The translations under genes were made by a program, and so were the position numbers. Under the pieces are notes generated by a model. That model was given only the letters and a program-made list of their open reading frames with translations, had not been told where the DNA came from and made no database searches. From assembly GCA_963662615.2 (NCBI GenBank), contig CAXXSR010000002.1, positions 160,001 through 224,000 of the forward strand: a stretch of DNA of 64,000 nt, in the 5' to 3' direction. Each line of letters begins with the position of its first letter. Positions within the stretch are counted from its first letter, which is position 1. Source of the DNA: Dehalococcoidia bacterium (lineage in GTDB: Bacteria; Chloroflexota; Dehalococcoidia; Bin125). Below, in pieces: positions 39,804 to 52,098 of the stretch.

Positions 39804-42318
39804 TTATAGGCACTTCCGGTGGGTTGGGTGGCTGTCGCAGAAGCTGCCGCCGCCGCTGTCGCCGTTTCCGCCTTTGCCGCCCTTGGTCACATTGATGGTG
39901 ACCGTGGCGGGAGCCGAGTAAGCCGTGCCGTCGTTGGCCATGTACGTGAAGTAGTCCTTGCCGGTGAAGCCGGCATTCGGTGTGTAGGTGAAGGAGCCGT
40001 CCGCGTTCAGGGTGAGGGCGCCATTCGAGGGATCGCTGCCGAGCACGGCCGTCAGCGGGTCGCCGTTGGCGTCAGTGTCGTTGGCGAGGACGCCGGGGGC
40101 GGCGACGGTGAGGGTCTGTTCTTTCTTGACGGCGTAGCTGTCGTCCGCCGCGGTGGGTGCGACGTTGGTGTTGGGATCAGTGACCGTGACGACGACCGTG
40201 TCGCTCCCGGTTAGGCCGCCGTTGTCAGTGACGGTGCGGGTGACGGTGTGCGGGCCGACGGCCAAGCTGGGCGTGATGATGGCCGTGGTCCCGAGAACGG
40301 TCGCGCCCTCTTTCCACTCGAAAGTCACGATGAGCCCGTCAGGATCGGAGCCGGAGCCGCTGAAGGTGACGCTTTCGATGCCGTCATTATTGATATCGGG
40401 CAGCGACTGGTCGGGACCGGCGTTGGCGGTGGGTGACTGATTGGGAGCGACACCGACAAGGACGGTGTCAGTGTCCGTGGCGTTCGCGTCGTCGGTGACG
40501 ATGAGCGTGATGGAGTGATCACCCACGCTCAAGGTCACGGTTGGGTTGGGGCCGGTCGCGATCTCGACGCCGCTTTCCGACCACACATGGGAGGTGATCG
40601 ACCCGTCCGGATCGGTCGAGGCGGCGCCGTCTAAGGTTACCTGCTCGTTGCCACCATTGTCGACGTCGGTAACGGTCTGGTCGGGGCCGGCGTCAGCGGT
40701 GGGGGGATCGTTGACCGGCGCGACCGTCACGGCGACGGTGGCGGTAGCGGTCCCGCCCCTGCCGTCGCTCATGGTGTAGGTGAAGCTGTCGCTGGTGGTC
40801 TCGGAACCGTCGTGGGTGTAGGTGACGGCGGATCCGTCCTGGCTAACCGGGCCATGTGCGCCCTGAGAGACGGTGGTGATAGTGAGCGGGTCGCCATCGG
40901 GGTCGCTGTCATTGGAGAGGACGTCGATCGTGCCGTAGCCACCCTCGTCGACGGTGTAGGGGTCGTCGACGGCGGTGGGCGGGGTGTTGGTGGGGCCACC
41001 GGCCAGGTAGAGGAGGCCCTCGTGGTAGGCGTCGGGGTCGTTGGTGTTGGACGGGCCCCAGGCGCCCTGAGGCTGCGCGCCGTCGATGAGGGCCTGGCGG
41101 ATGGCGGCGACGCCGTCGGCGTCGGTGGCGCGGCCGTTGGCGGCGGCGTAGAGGGCTGCCGCGCCGGCCACGTGAGGCGAGGACATGCTGGTCCCGCTAA
41201 TGGTCGCATAGAGGCCGCCGGGATAGGTGGAGAGGACGTTCACGCCGGGAGCGGCGACGTCGATGGCCCTGCCCGGCGAGCTGACGGGGTTCCCTGCGAC
41301 CACACTGCGGCTGAAGTTGGTGTTCGAGTAGAAGGTGTCGTCGGCGCCGCGGCTGGTGGAGGGGCCGAGCCCGCCGGGCCGGCCGTCGGTATCGACCATC
41401 CCGGAGATCGTGGCGGCCTCGGGGTAGGCGGCGGGGATGGAGTCGTCGCTGGTGTTCAAAGTGCCGTCGTTGCCGTACACGTCCCGGGAGCCGTTGCCAG
41501 CCGCGACGACGTAGACCACGCCGGCGGCGACGCTGTTCTGAATGGCCAAGCGCAGGGAGTCGAGTTTCCCGATGCCGCCCAAGCTCATATTGACGACTTC
41601 GATCTGGCCGTTGCCCGTGACGAAATCTATGGCCTCGATAATGTCAGAGAAGCTGCCGGAGCCGTTCTTGTTGAGGACCTTGAGGGCCCACAAACGCGCT
41701 CCGTGGGGCGACGCCGACCACGCCGATGCCGTTGTCGATCGCGGCGGCGGTGCCGGCGACGTGGGTGCCGTGGTAGTTGTCGTCGTCGCCGGTGGCGGCG
41801 CCGTTGATGAAGCTCTGGTTGTAGAAGACGTTCAGGTCCGGGTGATCCAGATCGATGCCGGTATCGAGGATGGCGATGTCCACGTTCATGGGATCGGGGA
41901 CGCCGTCGATGTTGGCGGTGGCGTTCTGGTCCGCGTTGATGCGGTCTATGCCTGGGGGAAGGGTCTGGAAGTTGTTGCCGTGGAGGATGGCGTGCGCCTC
42001 CAGGTCGGGCTCCACGAAGGCGACGTTGGGGTTGTGGGCGAGGGCGGCGGCGGCCGTCGCGGAGAAGCGGACGGCGAAGCCGGTGAGGGCGTGCTGGTAG
42101 GTGTGCAGGAGGGCGCCGCCGTGGGCGCCCACGAGCGCGTTGGCCAGGCCGGGCGGGTCGGCTACGCCGTCATGGAAGACGACGATGTACTGGCCGGGGA
42201 TGACGCCGGGCGGAGACTGCGCTTGTGCGTCGGTGGGAGACAGGCTACCGCCCAGGGCGACCGCGAGGGCCGCGGTGACGCCAAGAGCGAGGGAGACGCG
42301 AAGGAGACATCGTCGCAT
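39804..42318 (-). pseudogene. Secreted S8 subtilase (I9 propeptide, catalytic domain, Ig/cadherin-like and PKD repeats, Cx8C tail), frameshifted
   Basis: Triad motifs ILDTGID and HGTHVAG lie in ORF 41644-42318; GTSMSSPH lies in ORF 39804-41693. Removing one base near 41703 restores GVAPGARLWALKVL. Confidence 0.88.
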
Positions 42319-42485
42319 GGCAGCGCCGCCTTCCTGGCGCTCAGCCAGCCAATTCTCCGGCCGGCCGTCACGGGACGCTGTCTTCGGCGTCTATAGGACG
42401 AGGGCCGTGCGTCTTGTCTTTCTGGCTGCCTGGGGAACGGGTGGCGGCAGTCAGGACGGCGGCCTTCGCCATTCGCGAGAATCGC

Positions 42486-42514
42486 AGATTAGGCCGGTGA
42501 GCGACCGCTGTCAA
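42486..42514 (-). promoter_or_regulatory. Sigma70-type promoter for the subtilase
   Basis: TTGACA-N17-TAATCT on the minus strand. Confidence 0.65.
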
Positions 42515-42625
42515 CCACACCGGGAGCGCGGGGCTGGGGCGTGGTGCGTCCGCGTCGGCGCCGAGCGAGCCCTCCAGACCGGCGTCACGGGCCCTGTTTA
42601 TGGCCGGGTACCCGGTACCCTGCGC

Positions 42626-42656
42626 GCCCCGTCCTTCCCGGAGGGACGGGCCTCTT
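42626..42656 (-). terminator. Hairpin downstream of lysyl oxidase, near-identical to the one at 39187-39222
   Basis: CCCGTCCTTCC-c-GGAGGGACGGG followed by CCTCTT. Confidence 0.65.
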
Positions 42657-42671
42657 CATCCGATCAGTGCG

Positions 42672-43553
42672 TCAGCCGCTGGACGTGTGGCGGCACACCC
42701 TGGCGTTCGAGTTCTTGCTGCAGTCGGGGCCGGGGCCACCCCCCGACGACCCGCAACTGCCTTTTTGCAGCGTGAGATTCGTGAAGTCGATGCAGAGCGC
42801 CGCCTGGCTGACGTTCGCGTGGACATTTTCGGTCGTTTCCTTGATCTCCCCGTCACCGCCCACAGGATCGACTTCGATGGTGAGGACGTAGTCGCGGTCG
42901 TTGGCGCCGTCGGCGTTGTTCTGGACCAAGTCGGTCACGTCGACCCACTGGCCGTCCAGGTAGTAGCTGTACTTGTCGCCCCAGCCCACCGACATGCCCT
43001 GGACTTCGCCGCCGCAGGTGCGATAGACGGCCCGCTTGGGCGCGCCGGGCAGTTTTCTGTCAATGCGAGTGGTGTCCATGATGCAGAAGGTGGTCTTGGC
43101 GCCGTGCGCCCTGACATTCTCCCGGTCATTGGGCCGGTGGAGGTCGTAGATGGCGTAGCCCTGAAAGTGGGTATGGTTGTGCCCGTCGTGATAGATGAAG
43201 GTGCCGGCGGGGCTGGCAAGGGTCTCCCAAGTGCCGTCGGCGAGGAGGACGCGCTGGTAGACCTTCTGCTTCTGCGATCCGTTCTGGACGATGATCTCCG
43301 GGTCGGCCCAGAGGTCGAGGGGGCCGTCGCCGCCATTGGCGCTGGTGGTGCTGAAGCGGAGGACGGTGCGCTGCTCCCCGTTGATGGTGACCGTGTCGAA
43401 GCGGAAGTCGGTGGCCGCCAGAGGGTAGAGGTCGGGGTAGAGCGACTGGGGGCTCGCGGCGGCGGGGGTCGGTTCGACGCCTCCGAGACCGGCGGCGAAC
43501 GCCGCGACGGCGCCAGCAATCACGAGGCCGCTAATGGCCGTCCAGGCACGCAC
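42672..43553 (-). CDS. Secreted lysyl oxidase family protein
   Basis: LRFS, Cu site YHDGHNHTHF, KTTFC..DT (LTQ Lys) and QGMSVGWGDKY (LTQ Tyr) motifs; signal peptide. Confidence 0.9.
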   Translation of the reverse strand: MRAWTAISGLVIAGAVAAFAAGLGGVEPTPAAASPQSLYPDLYPLAATDFRFDTVTINGEQRTVLRFSTTSANGGDGPLDLWADPEIIVQNGSQKQKVYQRVLLADGTWETLASPAGTFIYHDGHNHTHFQGYAIYDLHRPNDRENVRAHGAKTTFCIMDTTRIDRKLPGAPKRAVYRTCGGEVQGMSVGWGDKYSYYLDGQWVDVTDLVQNNADGANDRDYVLTIEVDPVGGDGEIKETTENVHANVSQAALCIDFTNLTLQKGSCGSSGGGPGPDCSKNSNARVCRHTSSG

Positions 43554-43662
43554 GCGGGATCCCTTCGCATCTAGAGTGCGAATTCGCCCTCGCACTCTAG
43601 CGGGGATCGAGCGCGTTGATCTGGCCGGTTTCCACGATGTCCACTGGATCGACAGAAGCGAC

Positions 43663-43689
43663 AGAGCCCGCTCTTGCGAGCGGGCTCTT
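43663..43689 (-). terminator. Hairpin downstream of the matrixin gene
   Basis: AGAGCCCGCTC-ttgc-GAGCGGGCTCT. Confidence 0.65.
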
Positions 43690-43718
43690 GATATCAGCAG
43701 GCTGGGGCGGCGCGGACG

Positions 43719-44603
43719 CTACTTGTTAGGATCGCAATTCGGGTGGTTGGGTTTCTTCGAACAGGGCGGGCCGCCGCCGCCGCCGCCGCCGTCTTCTTCT
43801 TCGCTGCCGCTGGAGGCAGGGTACAGCGCCTTGATCCCGTTCTTGTCGTCCCTGTCCAAATTCTGGTCCACGCCGAGATAGGCGAAATACATCACGGCTT
43901 TCCATTGGGGAGAGTGGCCGAGGCCAGCCACGTGGCCGTTCTCGTGGAGGAAGACGGACTCAACGTCGTAGGTGTTGGCAGCGCCATTGGTGGACCAGGA
44001 GAAATTGGTGTTCATGGCCATGTCGGCTTCGAACGGCGCTGCGGTCCAGTACCAGGTCACGCCCAGCGTGTTGGGGTCATCGAGTGCCATCCAGGCCACG
44101 TCGTTGAGGCCGTCGCGGGTCTGGTTGCCGCATTCGTAGACCGTTGAAGGACAGCGGTTGATGTTCAGATCACCGGCGGCCAGAACGAATGCGGAGCCCT
44201 GAACATTGCTCCACGTCGTGTGGGTTGCGGTTAGAGCCGCCGCGCCACCACCGCCAGTTGGATCGCCGGTGGGGTTGTAGTTCTGGGTTAGGAAATCGGT
44301 GGCGGGGTCACCGTCCGAGAATTGAGGCCAGACCACACCGGTAACGGAAAAGGGAGCGGAGATCGGCTGCGCGCCCTGACGGCGCACGGCTCGCTCGGCC
44401 ACTGCGCGCGCATCCTGGCCCGGGGGCACGACCACGGCGACGTGGACGATGACATCCTCCCCCTGAATCTGGGCGAGACCGAACGCCGATACGACTTGCC
44501 CCGCCAGCGGGCCCTGGGCCTCGGCGCCGTCCGAGCGCAGGCCGAAGGCCAGGCCTACGGCCAGGGCCGCTACTGCGACCGCCGCGATTGAGAATCGTTT
44601 CAT
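43719..44603 (-). CDS. Secreted matrixin (M10) zinc metalloprotease
   Basis: HENGHVAGLGH plus Met-turn AVMY; signal peptide. Confidence 0.92.
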   Translation of the reverse strand: MKRFSIAAVAVAALAVGLAFGLRSDGAEAQGPLAGQVVSAFGLAQIQGEDVIVHVAVVVPPGQDARAVAERAVRRQGAQPISAPFSVTGVVWPQFSDGDPATDFLTQNYNPTGDPTGGGGAAALTATHTTWSNVQGSAFVLAAGDLNINRCPSTVYECGNQTRDGLNDVAWMALDDPNTLGVTWYWTAAPFEADMAMNTNFSWSTNGAANTYDVESVFLHENGHVAGLGHSPQWKAVMYFAYLGVDQNLDRDDKNGIKALYPASSGSEEEDGGGGGGGPPCSKKPNHPNCDPNK

Positions 44604-46186: not shown

Positions 46187-48286
46187 CTACCTCTGTTTGG
46201 TGTAGAGGTTGAATGGCGTGAGGCCGTTCCAGGTCAATCCAGGAGCGTTCAGTTGAACGACGATCGTGGTGTAGGTCCCGCGCGGCGCGTTGCGGACAAA
46301 CCAGGTGACCGTGCCGTCGGCGCCCGTGTCAGCGGTGCCCTCGCCGATCCAGGCGTCCTCCAGGCGGAAGAGCCAGATAGTCACGCTCGCTCCGGCGACG
46401 GGGTTGCCAAGATCGTCCCTCAGAGTGACCGTCACGTTCAGGTCCTTGAAGCCGCGGCTGAGCCAGTAGCCGTCGATGCCGCTGGGCGTCGTGACGATGA
46501 CGCTGGTGGCGTCAACGACTTCCGAGGCAACGTTGAAGGCGGCCGAGCCAAGGCCACTGATGCCGCGGCCATCGGTGACGCTCACCTGCACGGTGTGCTG
46601 TCCCTCAGCGGGCAGGGCAAGATTCGCGGTGTACATTCCGGGCGTCGCGGTTGGGCCGAACGTCACCGCGGCAGGGGAGCCGTCAAGCGTCGTGGCGAAG
46701 GCGGCGGAGGCGAGCTGGTCGATGGCGGCGCCGTACTCGTCGGTGACGATGGCGGTGACGATCGCGGTGGTATCGGTCCCGATCAGGTAGTCGGACTTGT
46801 CCGTGCTGAGGGCGACAATGACGGCCGGAGGCGCAGCGGTAACGGTGAGGCTGCTGCCAGTGCTGACACCTTCGCTGGACGCGGTGATCGTCGCTGCGCC
46901 GACGGCAAGGCCCGTGGCCAAGCCCGCGGCATCCACGGTTGCGATAGCGCCGACAGAGCTGCTCCAGGCCACCACGGCAGTGACATCGCGGCTGGTGTCG
47001 TCGTCGAAGGTGCCCATGGCGGTGAACTGTTGGCTCTGGCCCACTTCGATCGATGCGCTGCTGGGCGTGACGTCGATGCCGGTCAGCGCGGCGTCGGTGC
47101 CGACGAAGAGCAGCAGGTTGGGCGTGTTCCCCACAGCACTGTAGGCGTGCAACGCGATCTTGCCGGCGCTGGCGTTGCTGGTGATGGCGGCGGCGACGTT
47201 GGCCGGGCTGGCGGATGGATTGGACTCGAGATAGAGCGCCGCGGCGCCGGCGACGTGCGGCGTGGCCATGGAGGTGCCGCTAATGGTCCTGGTGGACTTG
47301 GGGCCGTTCTTCCAGGCCGAGGTGATGTCGACACCGGGGCCGAGAATGTCCACGCAGGTACCGTAGTTCGAGAAGGAGGCCTCTCGGTCGGAGCTGTCGG
47401 TCGCGCCCACGGTGAGCGCGTCGGCAACGCGTGCCGGAGAGATGTTGCAGGCGTCTTCGGGGAAGCCGAAGAAGTTGCCGTTGCCGGCGGCGATGGCGTA
47501 GGTCACCCCGTCGGCGATGGAGTTTTCGACCGCGGTATCCAGCGCGACGCTGGCGGAACCGCCGAGGCTCATGTTGGCAACGGCGGGTTCGCCGGCGACG
47601 TGGTCGCCTGTGACCCAATCGATGGCGGCGATCACGCCACTGTCGCTGCCGCTGCCGCGGCAGTTGAGCACGCGCAGCGCGATCAGATTCACGCTCTTGG
47701 CGACGCCGTAGGTCGCGCCGCCGACCGTACCGGCCACGTGGGTCCCATGGCCGTTACAGTCGCTGGCGACGGCATCGTCGCTGACGAAGTCCCAGCCGTA
47801 GGAGGCGCGGCCCTGAAATTCCCGGTGGGTGATGCGGATGCCGGTATCGATGATGTAGACGTTGACCCCGAGGCCGGTGGGGTTGTGGGTGTAGGCGCCG
47901 TCGAGGGGCAGGTCGCGCTGATCGATGCGATCGAGGCCCCAGGGGGCGTCGGATTGCGTGTCGCTCGCCCAGACCACGCGGTCCGGCTCCACGAAGTCCA
48001 CATTGGGGTTGCGGGCGAGGGCGCCAGCCGCTTGCTCGGAAAGCGTAGCCGCGAAGCCGTTGAGGGCGTGTTGGTAGACGAAATGCAGCGAACCGCCGTT
48101 GGCACGGACGAGCCGATTCGCCAATCCGGGCGCGTCGCGGACGTCGTTGTTGAAGACGACGATGTAGCGGCCGGGGATGACGTCAGGGGGTTGACCCTGG
48201 GCCTCGGCGTCGCCGGATCCCAGGCTCACGCCCAGCCCGATGGCCACGGCCGCCAATGCGACCAGGGCGATGGAGAATCGTTTCAT
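46187..48286 (-). CDS. Secreted S8 protease, aqualysin/proteinase K type, with Ig-like domains
   Basis: [24 protein letters not shown] and GTSMATPH motifs; Big_2-like domain. Confidence 0.95.
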
Positions 48287-48618: not shown

Positions 48619-49695
48619 TCAGGCCCCCAGCCGCCGTCGCCAGAGGGAGTAGGCAACGCCGACGAGAACGGCCGCGCCGGCGACGGCGCCGATCACACCC
48701 CAGACCCAGGCCGGCGGGTTGTCATCCACGTTGTCACCGCCGCTGCCGGTGGAGGGCAGCGCCTCGGGCGACACGGCCGGGGGTGGAGGCTGCGGTTGGG
48801 GTGGCGGTGGGGGTGGGGGTGGCGGTGGGGGCGGCAGGCCGGCGATGGTGGCGATGGCCGGGAAGCCCAAGATCTCGTTGAGCGTGGCCTCCACGGCGGG
48901 ATTTTCCGGCGCGTTGATCAGGATCACGATGAGGGCGCCCGGTCCCCAGATCGTCGCGTTGGCGGGCGGAGGGACGCCATCGTCGGCGCGGAAGCGATCC
49001 AAGGTCGCCTCCACGGCGGCGGCGCTCTCAAGCTGGTACGGCTCGATCGCGGCGGTACCCACGGGGATCCGCCCCGCGCTGGAAACGGGGATGCCATCGC
49101 GCTGGATGGCGATCTCCTGGAGGGCGGTGGGCAGGCCGGCGGCCGCCAGCGCCGTGAACAGCTCCGCCAACGTTGTGGGCCCTGCCACCGGCTCCGGCTC
49201 AATGACGGGCTCAGCGCGGGGCCCGCGCAGCGTCGCGCCGGGAGGGAGGGGCGCCTCTGGCACGGCGGCGGGCGACAGCTCGCCCTCAGCGAGGCGGAGG
49301 GAATCGCCGCGCAGGTCGGTGTGATAGCGGTAGGCGAGGGCACCGTCGCCGAGCCAGAGCGCCCAGCCGTCCACCAACACTTGGGCGCACAGCTCGCCGA
49401 CGTCGGCGGCTCCGAGACAGGCGTCATTCCAGGTGACCGCCTGGGCGCGGAGGAGCTGGATCGCGTCGGCCGCGGCGCCGCTGCGTTCGGCGAGATCGGC
49501 GGCGGCAGCGGCGAAGGCAGCGTCCGGCGGCTCCTGATTGCGCTGTGCCGAGACGAGGGAGGGCGCAAAGACGGCAAAGGCTGCCGCAAGCAGCAGCGCG
49601 AGGATGGATTGCGCGGCGAGCGATGGAAGGGGTCTCCGGTGCGGCGAGGCGGTTGCAAGGCCCCGGCCGGGCCGAGAGGGTCGATGGCCAGGCAT
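48619..49695 (-). CDS. Surface protein with poly-Pro linker and LPxTG sorting signal
   Basis: Signal peptide; W.DACLG....CAQV domain; LPSTG followed by a TM helix and RRR. Confidence 0.8.
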   Translation of the reverse strand: MPGHRPSRPGRGLATASPHRRPLPSLAAQSILALLLAAAFAVFAPSLVSAQRNQEPPDAAFAAAAADLAERSGAAADAIQLLRAQAVTWNDACLGAADVGELCAQVLVDGWALWLGDGALAYRYHTDLRGDSLRLAEGELSPAAVPEAPLPPGATLRGPRAEPVIEPEPVAGPTTLAELFTALAAAGLPTALQEIAIQRDGIPVSSAGRIPVGTAAIEPYQLESAAAVEATLDRFRADDGVPPPANATIWGPGALIVILINAPENPAVEATLNEILGFPAIATIAGLPPPPPPPPPPPPQPQPPPPAVSPEALPSTGSGGDNVDDNPPAWVWGVIGAVAGAAVLVGVAYSLWRRRLGA

Positions 49696-49882
49696 GCCCG
49701 CACCTTACTCTTCGTTGACTAGCGCTGAGCCGACATCCGCTGCCGTCCCTACACGATACCGCGCCGCTGAGCGAGTCGGTTCCGCTCCTTTCGCGTCCGA
49801 GCGGGGTGGGCGCGCGGTGGACGGCGCGCGCGGCGCGTGGGTAGGCTCCCGGCATGGCGAGCGACGAGATGAGCGCGACGGC

Positions 49883-50907: not shown

Positions 50908-52098
50908 TTAGCGAGGAGGATCGCGGTCGGGAGGGTTGCGGAAGGCGTCAATGCCGCCCGGTTTCTTGCGCCGTCGCAGGCGCGGCAGCCTCCGCCTACC
51001 GAGACCGGGGCGGAGCGAGAGCGGGCTCCGTATGCGCGCGCGTCGAGCGGGGGGAACCGGGAACTCTAGGAGGTTGGTGTCGGGAGTTGCGGTGGTATCG
51101 AGCGGGGGTGGGCGGTGGGGCTGGCGTTGGCTCTGGCGGTGGCGGCGCGCGCCGAAGCCGAAGCCGAAGCTGGGGGGCAGGTTCCAGGTGGGGCCGATGG
51201 CTCCGGCGGGCGCGCGCCAGCGGCCGATCAGGAAGGGGTAGATGAGAGCCATGCCGGCCACGAAGCCGCCGATGTGGGCGAACCAGGCGGTGCCGCCGCT
51301 GCCGACAGCATCGCCGGCGATGGAACCGACGCCGCTGATCAGGTTGAGGAGGAACCAGAAGCCGATCATGAGCGGCGCCGGAATGACCGCGGGGATAAAG
51401 AAGATGATGGGGATCAGGACCTGGATCATGGAGCGGGGGAAAAGGAGGAGGTAGGCGCCGAGGACGCCGGAGATGGCGCCGCTGGCGCCGATCATGGGCA
51501 CGAGGTCGCCGCTGTCGATCAAGATGTGGGCGGCGACGGCGGCGTACCCGATGACCATGTAGAAGAGGGCGAAGCGGACGTGGCCGAGGCGGTCTTCGAC
51601 GTTGTCGGCGAAGACCCAGAGGAAGAGCATGTTGCCAATGAGGTGCAGGAAGCCGCCGTGCAGGAACATGGCGAAGAGCGGCGTGAGGAGGAGGAGGATG
51701 AGGCCATCGAAGAGTTGGACGCCCTGCAGCTCCACCACGTCGTGGGACGTCGAATTGCCGTCGATCTCGCCGGTGATGAACTCGGGGACGGCACCGAACC
51801 GCAGCGTGAACTCGTCCCGCGGTGAAACGGGATAGCGGACGAACACGTCCGACCCTAGCCGACGAGGGAAGACGAACTCGCCGGCGCTTTCGAGACGCGG
51901 ATCCGCCGCGGCGATCGCCTCTGCTGCTTGGGGGCTTCCCGCTTCGGTGATGGCGGCGTCGTCGATGATGAAGACAGCGCGAGTCGGGGTATCGTTCATC
52001 ACGAACATCAGCAAGAAGACGAGGACGTTAATGACGATAAGCGCCCTGGTGACATAGGGCGTCGTGGTGCGCCACTGGCTGTCGCGGATGGGAATCAT
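50908..52098 (-). CDS. Rhomboid intramembrane serine protease
   Basis: MFLHGG..HL.GNM, GASGA and AHIGG motifs. Confidence 0.93.
   Translation of the reverse strand: MIPIRDSQWRTTTPYVTRALIVINVLVFLLMFVMNDTPTRAVFIIDDAAITEAGSPQAAEAIAAADPRLESAGEFVFPRRLGSDVFVRYPVSPRDEFTLRFGAVPEFITGEIDGNSTSHDVVELQGVQLFDGLILLLLTPLFAMFLHGGFLHLIGNMLFLWVFADNVEDRLGHVRFALFYMVIGYAAVAAHILIDSGDLVPMIGASGAISGVLGAYLLLFPRSMIQVLIPIIFFIPAVIPAPLMIGFWFLLNLISGVGSIAGDAVGSGGTAWFAHIGGFVAGMALIYPFLIGRWRAPAGAIGPTWNLPPSFGFGFGARRHRQSQRQPHRPPPLDTTATPDTNLLEFPVPPARRARIRSPLSLRPGLGRRRLPRLRRRKKPGGIDAFRNPPDRDPPR

Follow-up and report, generated by a model that had tools for sequence, protein, structure and literature searches.

Why do three unrelated secreted enzymes, encoded next to one another, end in the same short tail? 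The question is raised by a stretch of 64,000 nucleotides from a Dehalococcoidia bacterium (GenBank assembly GCA_963662615.2, contig CAXXSR010000002.1, positions 160,001 to 224,000 of the forward strand; hereafter the window), in which a subtilase (S8), a lysyl oxidase, and an M10 (matrixin-like) metalloprotease lie side by side, in this order, on the minus strand. An initial annotation, made from the DNA alone, had noted that each protein finishes with a Gly-rich linker and a loop of exact C-x8-C spacing, and we recovered all three tails where it had placed them. The subtilase tail (39804..39890, minus strand) consists of the linker GGKGGNGDSGGGSF, the loop CDSHPTHRKC, a single L, and the stop codon, so that the C-terminus reads ...TKGGKGGNGDSGGGSF-CDSHPTHRKC-L. 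The lysyl oxidase tail (42672..42760, minus strand) is made of the linker GSSGGGPGPD, the loop CSKNSNARVC, and RHTSSG before the stop codon, and it lacks the P-x-H-P core seen in other tails. The M10 tail (43719..43810, minus strand) has the linker SEEEDGGGGGGGPP (written elsewhere as GGGGGGGPP), the loop CSKKPNHPNC, and DPNK before the stop codon, reading ...EEEDGGGGGGGPP-CSKKPNHPNC-DPNK. The comparisons reported here indicate that the tail is a real, conserved, portable, and rare module. We tentatively favor, at somewhat less than even odds, the reading that it is a protease-resistant, cationic display or binding loop on secreted enzymes and not a cleaved sorting signal.

The catalytic domains were identified with Pfam as Peptidase_S8, Lysyl_oxidase, and Peptidase_M10, which upholds the claim that three unrelated families share the tail. 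The subtilase gene (39804..42318, minus strand; ORFs, i.e., open reading frames, and Pfam) encodes a signal peptide, an I9 propeptide, the S8 domain, and cadherin-like, PKD, and Big_9 domains that precede the tail. In this assembly an additional base at about 41703/41704 divides its ORF into 41644..42318 and 39804..41693. The break most likely reflects a faulty assembly or a change private to the strain, because the base is missing from the contigs of four of four other public runs (depth 2.4-3.7 each) and because an intact 837-residue subtilase with the same tail exists (P0241). The lysyl oxidase gene (42672..43595, minus strand) has a longest ORF of 307 residues with a match to PF01186 (E 1.7e-13); the database form of the protein, P0121 (293 residues), would begin at 43553. 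The M10 gene (43719..44603, minus strand; PF00413) encodes 294 residues from an MKRF start and corresponds to P0001. All three proteins have signal-peptide-like N-termini. None of them has a hydrophobic C-terminal stretch or membrane helix, and the initial annotation had likewise noted no membrane anchor.

Several scans argue that these ends are not a product of chance. The source genome (2.66 Mb) comprises two contigs of 2.008 Mb and 0.653 Mb, the window being on the smaller one, and we searched it as 18,416 six-frame stop-to-stop ORFs of at least 80 residues. A Gly run with a C-x8-C end was found on real-looking ORFs only in the three window neighbors; the remaining matches were Arg-rich off-frame ORFs. 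A degenerate DNA pattern encoding GG-x-x-C-x-x-[KNH..]-[PL]-[NT]-H-[PR]-[KN]-C matched the window twice, at 39810-39851 (subtilase) and 43734-43775 (M10), against none expected from 100 shuffles. We then ran a profile of nine foreign tails, none of them from the window, against all 18,416 ORFs. The top rank went to the M10 tail (E 2.8e-11); the lysyl oxidase tail came second (E 0.068) and the S8 tail fourth (E 0.21; domain 0.041), neither of the latter two being individually significant. Judged by this profile, the membership of the M10 tail in a wider tail family is unambiguous. The S8 and lysyl oxidase tails are at best diverged members, a placement we make because they share the architecture, the exact spacing, and the adjacency. 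Outside the window, on the large contig (C1, 711737-712546, minus strand), an unrelated secreted low-complexity protein with five repeats of about 30 residues (PGAQGQGQDDPSAGSQGQNDSGDHGKPVD) ends in ...ACKDSLGGYRNMGMCIN, which is C-x12-C and a different loop.

The tail recurs in other organisms and on other enzymes. We scanned 185,579 species genomes, plus metagenomes, with a DNA pattern. The species genomes yielded five loci, of which three were genuine: two in Nitrosopumilaceae metagenome-assembled genomes (MAGs) and one in a Dehalococcoidia MAG. The carriers comprise a Nitrosopumilaceae subtilase of 716 residues (I9-S8-PKD-Big_7) that ends ...GGGGGGVDCNAKPNHPKCR, a Nitrosopumilus PKD protein that ends ...GGSGGGPDCTAKPNHPKCQ, and a Dehalococcoidia ORF that ends ...GDKGGPPCSKNPNHPNCVPQNAV. 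The metagenomes yielded 11 loci, 10 of them genuine, which reduce to seven distinct genes after duplicates. Among these, a reprolysin-like M12B protease that also carries fn3 domains has the C-terminus ...GGGGPDCTKNPNHRKCTGS, and a subtilase of low GC content, with MopE-type putative metal-binding repeats, stops exactly at ...KGGPDCNEKPNHPKC; several small proteases of about 220 residues are included as well. A tail profile of 12 sequences (A3), searched with HMMER against 1.84 billion cluster representatives at E<=0.001, retrieved 23 proteins. Two of these (P0251 and P0259) are repeat artifacts, and the 21 genuine matches are M10, S8, PKD, Big_9, CarboxypepD_reg, and small-protease proteins. 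An exact C-x8-C directly after a Gly-rich linker on a signal-peptide protein is found in all three window proteins and in all 21 genuine representatives.

Taken across these searches, the cargo includes S8, M10, lysyl oxidase, reprolysin-like M12B with fn3, and a small protease with a snapalysin/matrix metalloproteinase (MMP) fold, and the tail is also placed after PKD, Big_7, Big_9, and CarboxypepD_reg domains. The carriers are bacterial and archaeal, with a GC content from 32% to 68%. The wider search proposed in the initial annotation thus succeeded for S8, M10, M12B, and small proteases in bacteria and archaea; in a sample of 400 other Chloroflexota genomes it was not convincing, the profile giving only two weak, chance-like matches (E 0.0011, in a 22-residue frame, and E 0.0099). 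A sample of 300 genomes from the order of the Nitrosopumilaceae MAG contained no further tail carrier by profile, and each of three foreign carrier genomes held one copy by the same type of search. A word-index profile search with the three window tails returned five matches; this method needs shared 5-mers and is uninformative on rarity.

Where does the loop sit in its carriers, and what is it made of? In the consensus, a linker that is often acidic at first and then rich in Gly leads into GGP[PDN]-C-x-x-[KNH]-P-x-H-[PR]-[NKR]-C, about 25-30 residues in total. The net charge of the loop ranges from 0 to +3, and at least one His is present in all 21 genuine representatives. In 13 of the 21, the second Cys has 0-6 residues after it. 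In the other eight the loop is internal, with 15-95 residues after it, and all eight belong to the small protease family, whose extension (13-45 residues, longer in one fragment only) usually ends in a G-x-W-[IV]-T-V-[HD]-x-F-P-x-P strand. AlphaFold2 predicts the body of one small protease (P0244) with a predicted local distance difference test score (pLDDT) above 90 and places the linker and loop under about 50, while residues 217-224 are confidently modeled as a terminal strand; Foldseek matched the body to the MMP/snapalysin fold. In the model of the window M10, pLDDT exceeds 90 to about residue 262, falls below 50 in the linker (271-279), and is about 62 in the loop, with no secondary structure after residue 262. 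The loop is thus modeled as a tethered, exposed element for which a free C-terminus is not required, because it is internal in the eight small proteases.

These small secreted proteases, of about 220 residues, form a family of their own (loci L013, L016, L020, L022, and L023; proteins P0243, P0244, P0247, P0253, P0258, P0262, and P0265). Of seven full-length members searched with Pfam, six had no match and P0262 had a weak match to Reprolysin_2 (20.3 bits, cut-off 27). The zinc motif is QExxHxxGLxH, with Gln in place of the first His of HExxH in 10 of 10 aligned members, and the Cys loop sits in a lariat ahead of a docking C-terminal strand.

Orthologs retain the loop. The initial annotation had set retention of the Cys spacing in orthologs beforehand as a check, and the spacing is kept in the S8 ortholog P0242 and in the M10 relatives P0002, P0068, P0074, P0256, and P0257. 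P0242, whose C-terminus is ...GDSSFCDTHLTHRKCL, is about 57% identical to P0241 overall, and 20 of 25 tail residues are identical, both Cys included; the tail appears to be under selection because it is kept so much better than the protein as a whole. In the record of P0242, an Arg/Pro-rich stretch replaces the I9 propeptide region of P0241 between identical flanks, which looks like a compensating pair of frameshifts. Among the 120 best M10 homologs, four have a Gly linker with a C-x8-C end: the window protein itself, P0002 (...GGVPGYCKKHPEREGCP), P0068 (...GGGGGPPCSKNPTHPNCRP), and P0074 (...GGGGGGCVPKGNGNNCR). The fragment P0257 ends ...GGPPCSKKPDHPNCDLNK. Two more of the 120 end in a C-x9-C loop, and at least three (a rough regular-expression count) end in knottin-like multi-Cys modules. 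The latter type of end (P0021, P0076, P0083, and P0089) resembles the tail in being C-terminal and following a Gly/Thr linker, but it has at least six Cys in a knot-like pattern over 30-40 residues, whereas the tail is a single loop with two Cys; P0076 gave a weak UPF0506 match. Among 120 lysyl oxidase homologs, the C-x8-C tail is found in the window protein only. By a rough count, 17 of the 120 have Gly/Asn-rich basic ends such as ...GNGNGRGNRPPR and six have other short Cys loops. The Gly/Asn-rich basic end of bacterial lysyl oxidases (P0122-P0128 and others; locus L027), for example ...GPGNGNGRGNGRGPR and ...GPGNSNGRGGGRPF, looks like another unannotated type of short C-terminal tail.

The conservation also bears on whether the tail does anything specific. 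It might be a stabilizing cap, or an inherited remnant, for example of the small protease's C-terminal lariat, that was spread by recombination. The window M10 shares 16 identical residues (PPCSKKPNHPNCDPNK) with P0243, a small protease to which it is unrelated, as would be expected if the module had been transferred, and the core motif has been lost from the lysyl oxidase tail. A functionless tail would not, however, be expected to be more conserved than its carrier, as between P0241 and P0242, nor to be kept on many types of cargo in bacteria and archaea of such different GC content, and we regard this explanation as very unlikely. We also considered a snapalysin-like small protease in the source genome as the donor of the M10 tail and rejected it, as tblastn recovered the 16-residue tail alone.

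An intraloop disulfide is plausible, because the number of Cys after residue 30 is even in 21 of 21 full-length carriers and because the tail Cys are the only two Cys in both S8 orthologs. Alternatively, the two Cys and the central His could bind Zn, Cu, or Ni in place of forming a disulfide, either to deliver the metal to a metalloenzyme or to dock the protein in a metal-dependent manner. Such a site would suit the invariant Cys, the one His that is nearly invariant in the conserved subfamily, and the flanking prolines. It would also suit the carriers, which are mostly metalloenzymes (Zn in M10, M12B, and the snapalysin-like proteases; Cu in lysyl oxidase) and include the subtilase with MopE-type repeats and the small proteases with their substituted zinc motif. 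However, these are extracellular proteins with even Cys counts throughout, neither the lysyl oxidase tail nor P0074 has the His, and S8 carriers require no transition metal. Three ligands on a loop of ten residues would be unusual, and the invariance of the His is partly imposed by the search pattern. We therefore consider a metal site decidedly unlikely. The Cys could also pair between chains, in the style of an antibody hinge, to give homodimers or, in this genome, a hetero-assembly of S8, lysyl oxidase, and M10. The Pro beside both Cys (PP-C ... HP-x-C) after a flexible linker, the co-location of three carriers in one genome, and the status of the tail Cys as the sole Cys of S8 are what such a covalent hinge would predict. 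Against this, a C-x8-C spacing closes readily on itself, and the single copy in other genomes would allow only homodimers there, which makes the hinge highly improbable.

Most carriers are proteases, of four families, and we asked whether the loop could be directed at proteases, as a Bowman-Birk-like inhibitor or pseudo-substrate that keeps co-secreted proteases latent or shields the carrier until it is clipped. The window cluster is suggestive here, with two subtilases (a second one lies nearby; see below) and an M10 protease beside the lysyl oxidase. According to available excerpts, Bowman-Birk inhibitors use a short disulfide loop, CTP1SXPPXC (PMC7760496), and their frog relatives a Cys6-Cys16 loop (PMC5408667). 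Bowman-Birk and ranacyclin loops, as excerpted in PMC7760496, are similar to the tail in being short and Pro-containing; the tail loops often start C-[ST]-K, and a disulfide is predicted for them. They differ in being C-x7-C, with Ser after P1 and Pro-Pro, in a free inhibitor, whereas the ten-residue loops of the tail are one residue longer, lack both Ser at P1' and Pro-Pro, conserve P-x-H-P-x-C, and are attached to an enzyme. Positions 2-3, which would hold P1, vary (TA, NA, NE, DK, DQ, EK, DS), while the P-x-H-P half is conserved, and lysyl oxidase, a non-protease, also bears the tail. A protease-directed loop is, on balance, unlikely.

Does the tail correspond to a module that has already been described? 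Pfam placed no domain on any of the three window tails, and NCBIfam, queried at E up to 10 with the complete proteins as well as with tails of 39 residues, placed neither a sorting-signal model nor any other model on them. The tails of the foreign carriers were likewise unmatched in Pfam and NCBIfam. The tail profile had no match at E up to 10 among 177,635 distinct PDB sequences, and a literature search by loop strings and topic keywords (subscription-only literature lay outside its scope) found no description of the tail. The view of the initial annotation that this is no named sorting signal is therefore sustained, no described domain matches the tail, and it is apparently uncatalogued in the domain, structure, and sorting-signal collections searched. 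In kind, it belongs with the short C-terminal add-on modules of secreted enzymes, which are known.

The remaining possibility raised at the outset was that the loop is a sorting or attachment signal, recognized by a sortase-, exosortase-, or rhombosortase-like enzyme that cleaves the protein or couples it to the envelope. Tripartite sorting signals consist of a motif, a membrane helix, and a basic end, and are recognized by a partner enzyme; the C-terminal domain (CTD) of type IX secretion systems (T9SS) is folded and has roughly 70-100 residues. The tail resembles the LPXTG, PEP-CTERM, GlyGly-CTERM, MYXO-CTERM, and T9SS CTD signals in being C-terminal, after a linker, on signal-peptide proteins of unrelated families, and some of these signals likewise follow Gly-rich or Cys motifs. 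The resemblance does not extend to the details. The three tails have no LPXTG-type motif with a helix and basic residues. A Gly run is present as in GlyGly-CTERM but no helix follows it, and the best model, SVAGG, reached E 0.22 and 10.5 bits against a cut-off of 150. PEP-CTERM, MYXO-CTERM, and related exosortase/myxosortase signals likewise find no counterpart, as there is no helix and no match to a curated model. With its 25-30 residues the tail is far shorter than the T9SS CTD, and unmatched by Pfam and NCBIfam as noted.

The gene neighborhood might nevertheless have supplied a processing enzyme. The three carriers are clustered, and a rhomboid-family protease gene (50908..52098, minus strand; Pfam Rhomboid) lies about 2.6 kb past the last gene of the cluster. 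No NCBIfam model matched this rhomboid protease, the rhombosortase model included, and we found no link between it and the tails. The genome also has four sortase homologs, on the large contig, and a secreted protein of LPXTG type (48619..49704, minus strand; no Pfam or NCBIfam family), which has a poly-Pro stretch, ALPSTG, a hydrophobic helix, and RRRLGA and is a classical sortase substrate. Because of these sortases and this true LPXTG protein, conventional anchoring is predicted to be available in the genome, but it is unused by the three enzymes as judged from their sequences. Across five multi-kb carrier loci (L008, L010, L011, L018, and L022) there is no conserved neighbor or processing-enzyme gene, the neighbors being housekeeping genes. 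There are three copies of the tail in the source genome and one in each of the three other carrier genomes, the sampled Chloroflexota and Nitrosopumilaceae-order genomes gave nothing beyond the two chance-like matches, and in one protease family the loop is internal. The tail also has neither a hydrophobic helix nor a cytoplasmic basic cluster. We conclude that a sorting signal is very improbable; of the disulfide-loop tag that the initial annotation had envisaged, the disulfide remains plausible and the sorting role is unsupported.

We instead favor, with the reservation expressed above, a displayed binding loop. In this reading, a small, net-basic loop rich in Pro, His, and Asn would be held out on a flexible tether and most likely closed by a Cys-Cys disulfide. 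It would bind something extracellular, be it the target of the enzyme (a polymer or a protein), the envelope of the producer, or another protein as partner, and such binding would keep or aim the exoenzyme, while the disulfide would make the loop resist co-travelling proteases. The tail would be the smallest of a set of interchangeable C-terminal modules that also includes Ig-like ends, knottin-like Cys-rich ends, and Gly/Asn-rich basic tails; homologs do bear such alternative modules at the same position. We prefer this interpretation because of the combination of a tether, a tiny basic loop, cargo that acts on extracellular proteins, module interchange, tolerance of an internal position, low copy number, and the lack of a partner gene.

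Several points weigh against it. The profile seeds were gathered with a pattern fixing P5, H7, and position 8, so that invariance at these positions is partly built in, and homologs found via their catalytic domains have looser loops (CKKHPEREGC, CVPKGNGNNC, C-x6-C, and C-x9-C). The foreign-tail profile matches the S8 (E 0.21) and lysyl oxidase (E 0.068) tails weakly, and AlphaFold2 yields no confident loop structure. What the sequences show is the motif, its conservation, cargo range, rarity, and position, and the even Cys counts; the intraloop disulfide and any binding function are inferred, and no ligand or partner was identified. Finally, bacteria and archaea keep P-x-H-P and the two Cys so strictly that a particular chemistry, such as metal binding or recognition by an enzyme, would account for it at least as well as generic electrostatic binding.

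Two systems known from elsewhere invite comparison, the first of them as a precedent. In the archaeal secreted subtilase halolysin SptA, available excerpts of PMC3158780 describe a C-terminal extension whose two-Cys disulfide protects it from autocleavage and proteolysis and which aids the binding of protein substrates. It is like the tail in being a C-terminal add-on of a secreted subtilase with two Cys, but in the same excerpts it is a folded, beta-jelly-roll-like domain with Cys303 and Cys338 35 residues apart, whereas the tail is a ten-residue loop on a Gly linker. The two do not match in sequence, the tails having no Pfam match, and we do not count the extension as a member of the tail family. 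The CC loops of peptide hormones, as excerpted in PMC8807871, are tiny loops closed by a disulfide; they serve secreted proteins as portable signals and self-aggregate in eukaryotic secretory granules. They share with the tail only the tiny, portable Cys loop; the sequences are unrelated, and nothing here points to aggregation.

How might such a module have come to sit on three adjacent genes? The cluster is surrounded by a Zn-alcohol dehydrogenase, a second subtilase, fatty-acid metabolism genes, the rhomboid protease, and flagellar genes. The second subtilase (46187..48286, minus strand; ORFs and Pfam) lacks the Cys-loop tail and ends in an Ig-like module. This Ig-like ..GLTWDG..TP.N..K end is also found in at least 30 of the 120 M10 homologs, Nitrosopumilus matrixins among them, and its sharing is sequence-based evidence for the swapping of C-terminal modules among these enzyme families. 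The M10 gene is present in four of 41 related genomes, that of the window counted, and two inspected matches (L002 and L003) have no tail. Its closest named homologs are Nitrosopumilus matrixins, at 48-49% identity. These comparisons suggest that the cargo moved laterally between Chloroflexota and ammonia-oxidizing archaea, because the M10 protein is closest to Nitrosopumilus and yet occurs in so few of the related genomes. The three carriers were probably acquired as, or together with, a laterally moving set of secreted protein-modifying enzymes.

We also considered the lysyl oxidase as an obligatory partner of the tail, with the tail Lys as its substrate. PF01186 is found in the source genome and in the Dehalococcoidia carrier, where it lies far from the tail gene and ends differently, in a basic stretch rich in Gly and Asn. 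The two small Nitrosopumilaceae MAGs, of unknown completeness, gave no match, and the literature searched held nothing relevant on lysyl oxidase in Thaumarchaeota. This idea has no support and is a very distant possibility.

A bolder version of the binding-loop reading makes the loop a new mini-docking tag used across domains of life. As a disulfide-stapled epitope of 14 residues (GGPx-C..KPNHP.C), it would plug secreted protein-remodeling enzymes onto one specific receptor, which could be a protein at the surface, a polymer of the matrix, or a partner bridged by a metal. Here it would gather the subtilase, the lysyl oxidase, and the matrixin on one target, and it would move between Chloroflexota and ammonia-oxidizing archaea with its cargo. 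We regard this version as possible but doubtful.

Secreted enzymes of uncultured bacteria and archaea are usually annotated by their catalytic domain alone, and the short ends go unnoticed or are masked as low-complexity sequence. The tail described here is a conserved, exchangeable unit of 25-30 residues that spans the bacterial-archaeal divide and at least five enzyme families. Its motif is precise enough for a curated model. If it is inhibitor-like or metal-binding, it would bear on how secreted proteases are restrained. If it is a binding or docking loop, it might serve as a very small, heat-tolerant, protease-resistant tag for protein immobilization. In the organisms themselves, such a loop would hold exoenzymes close to the cell or their substrate with neither a membrane anchor nor a binding domain of full size and, should the mini-docking version hold, no smaller targeting module for exoenzymes would be known.

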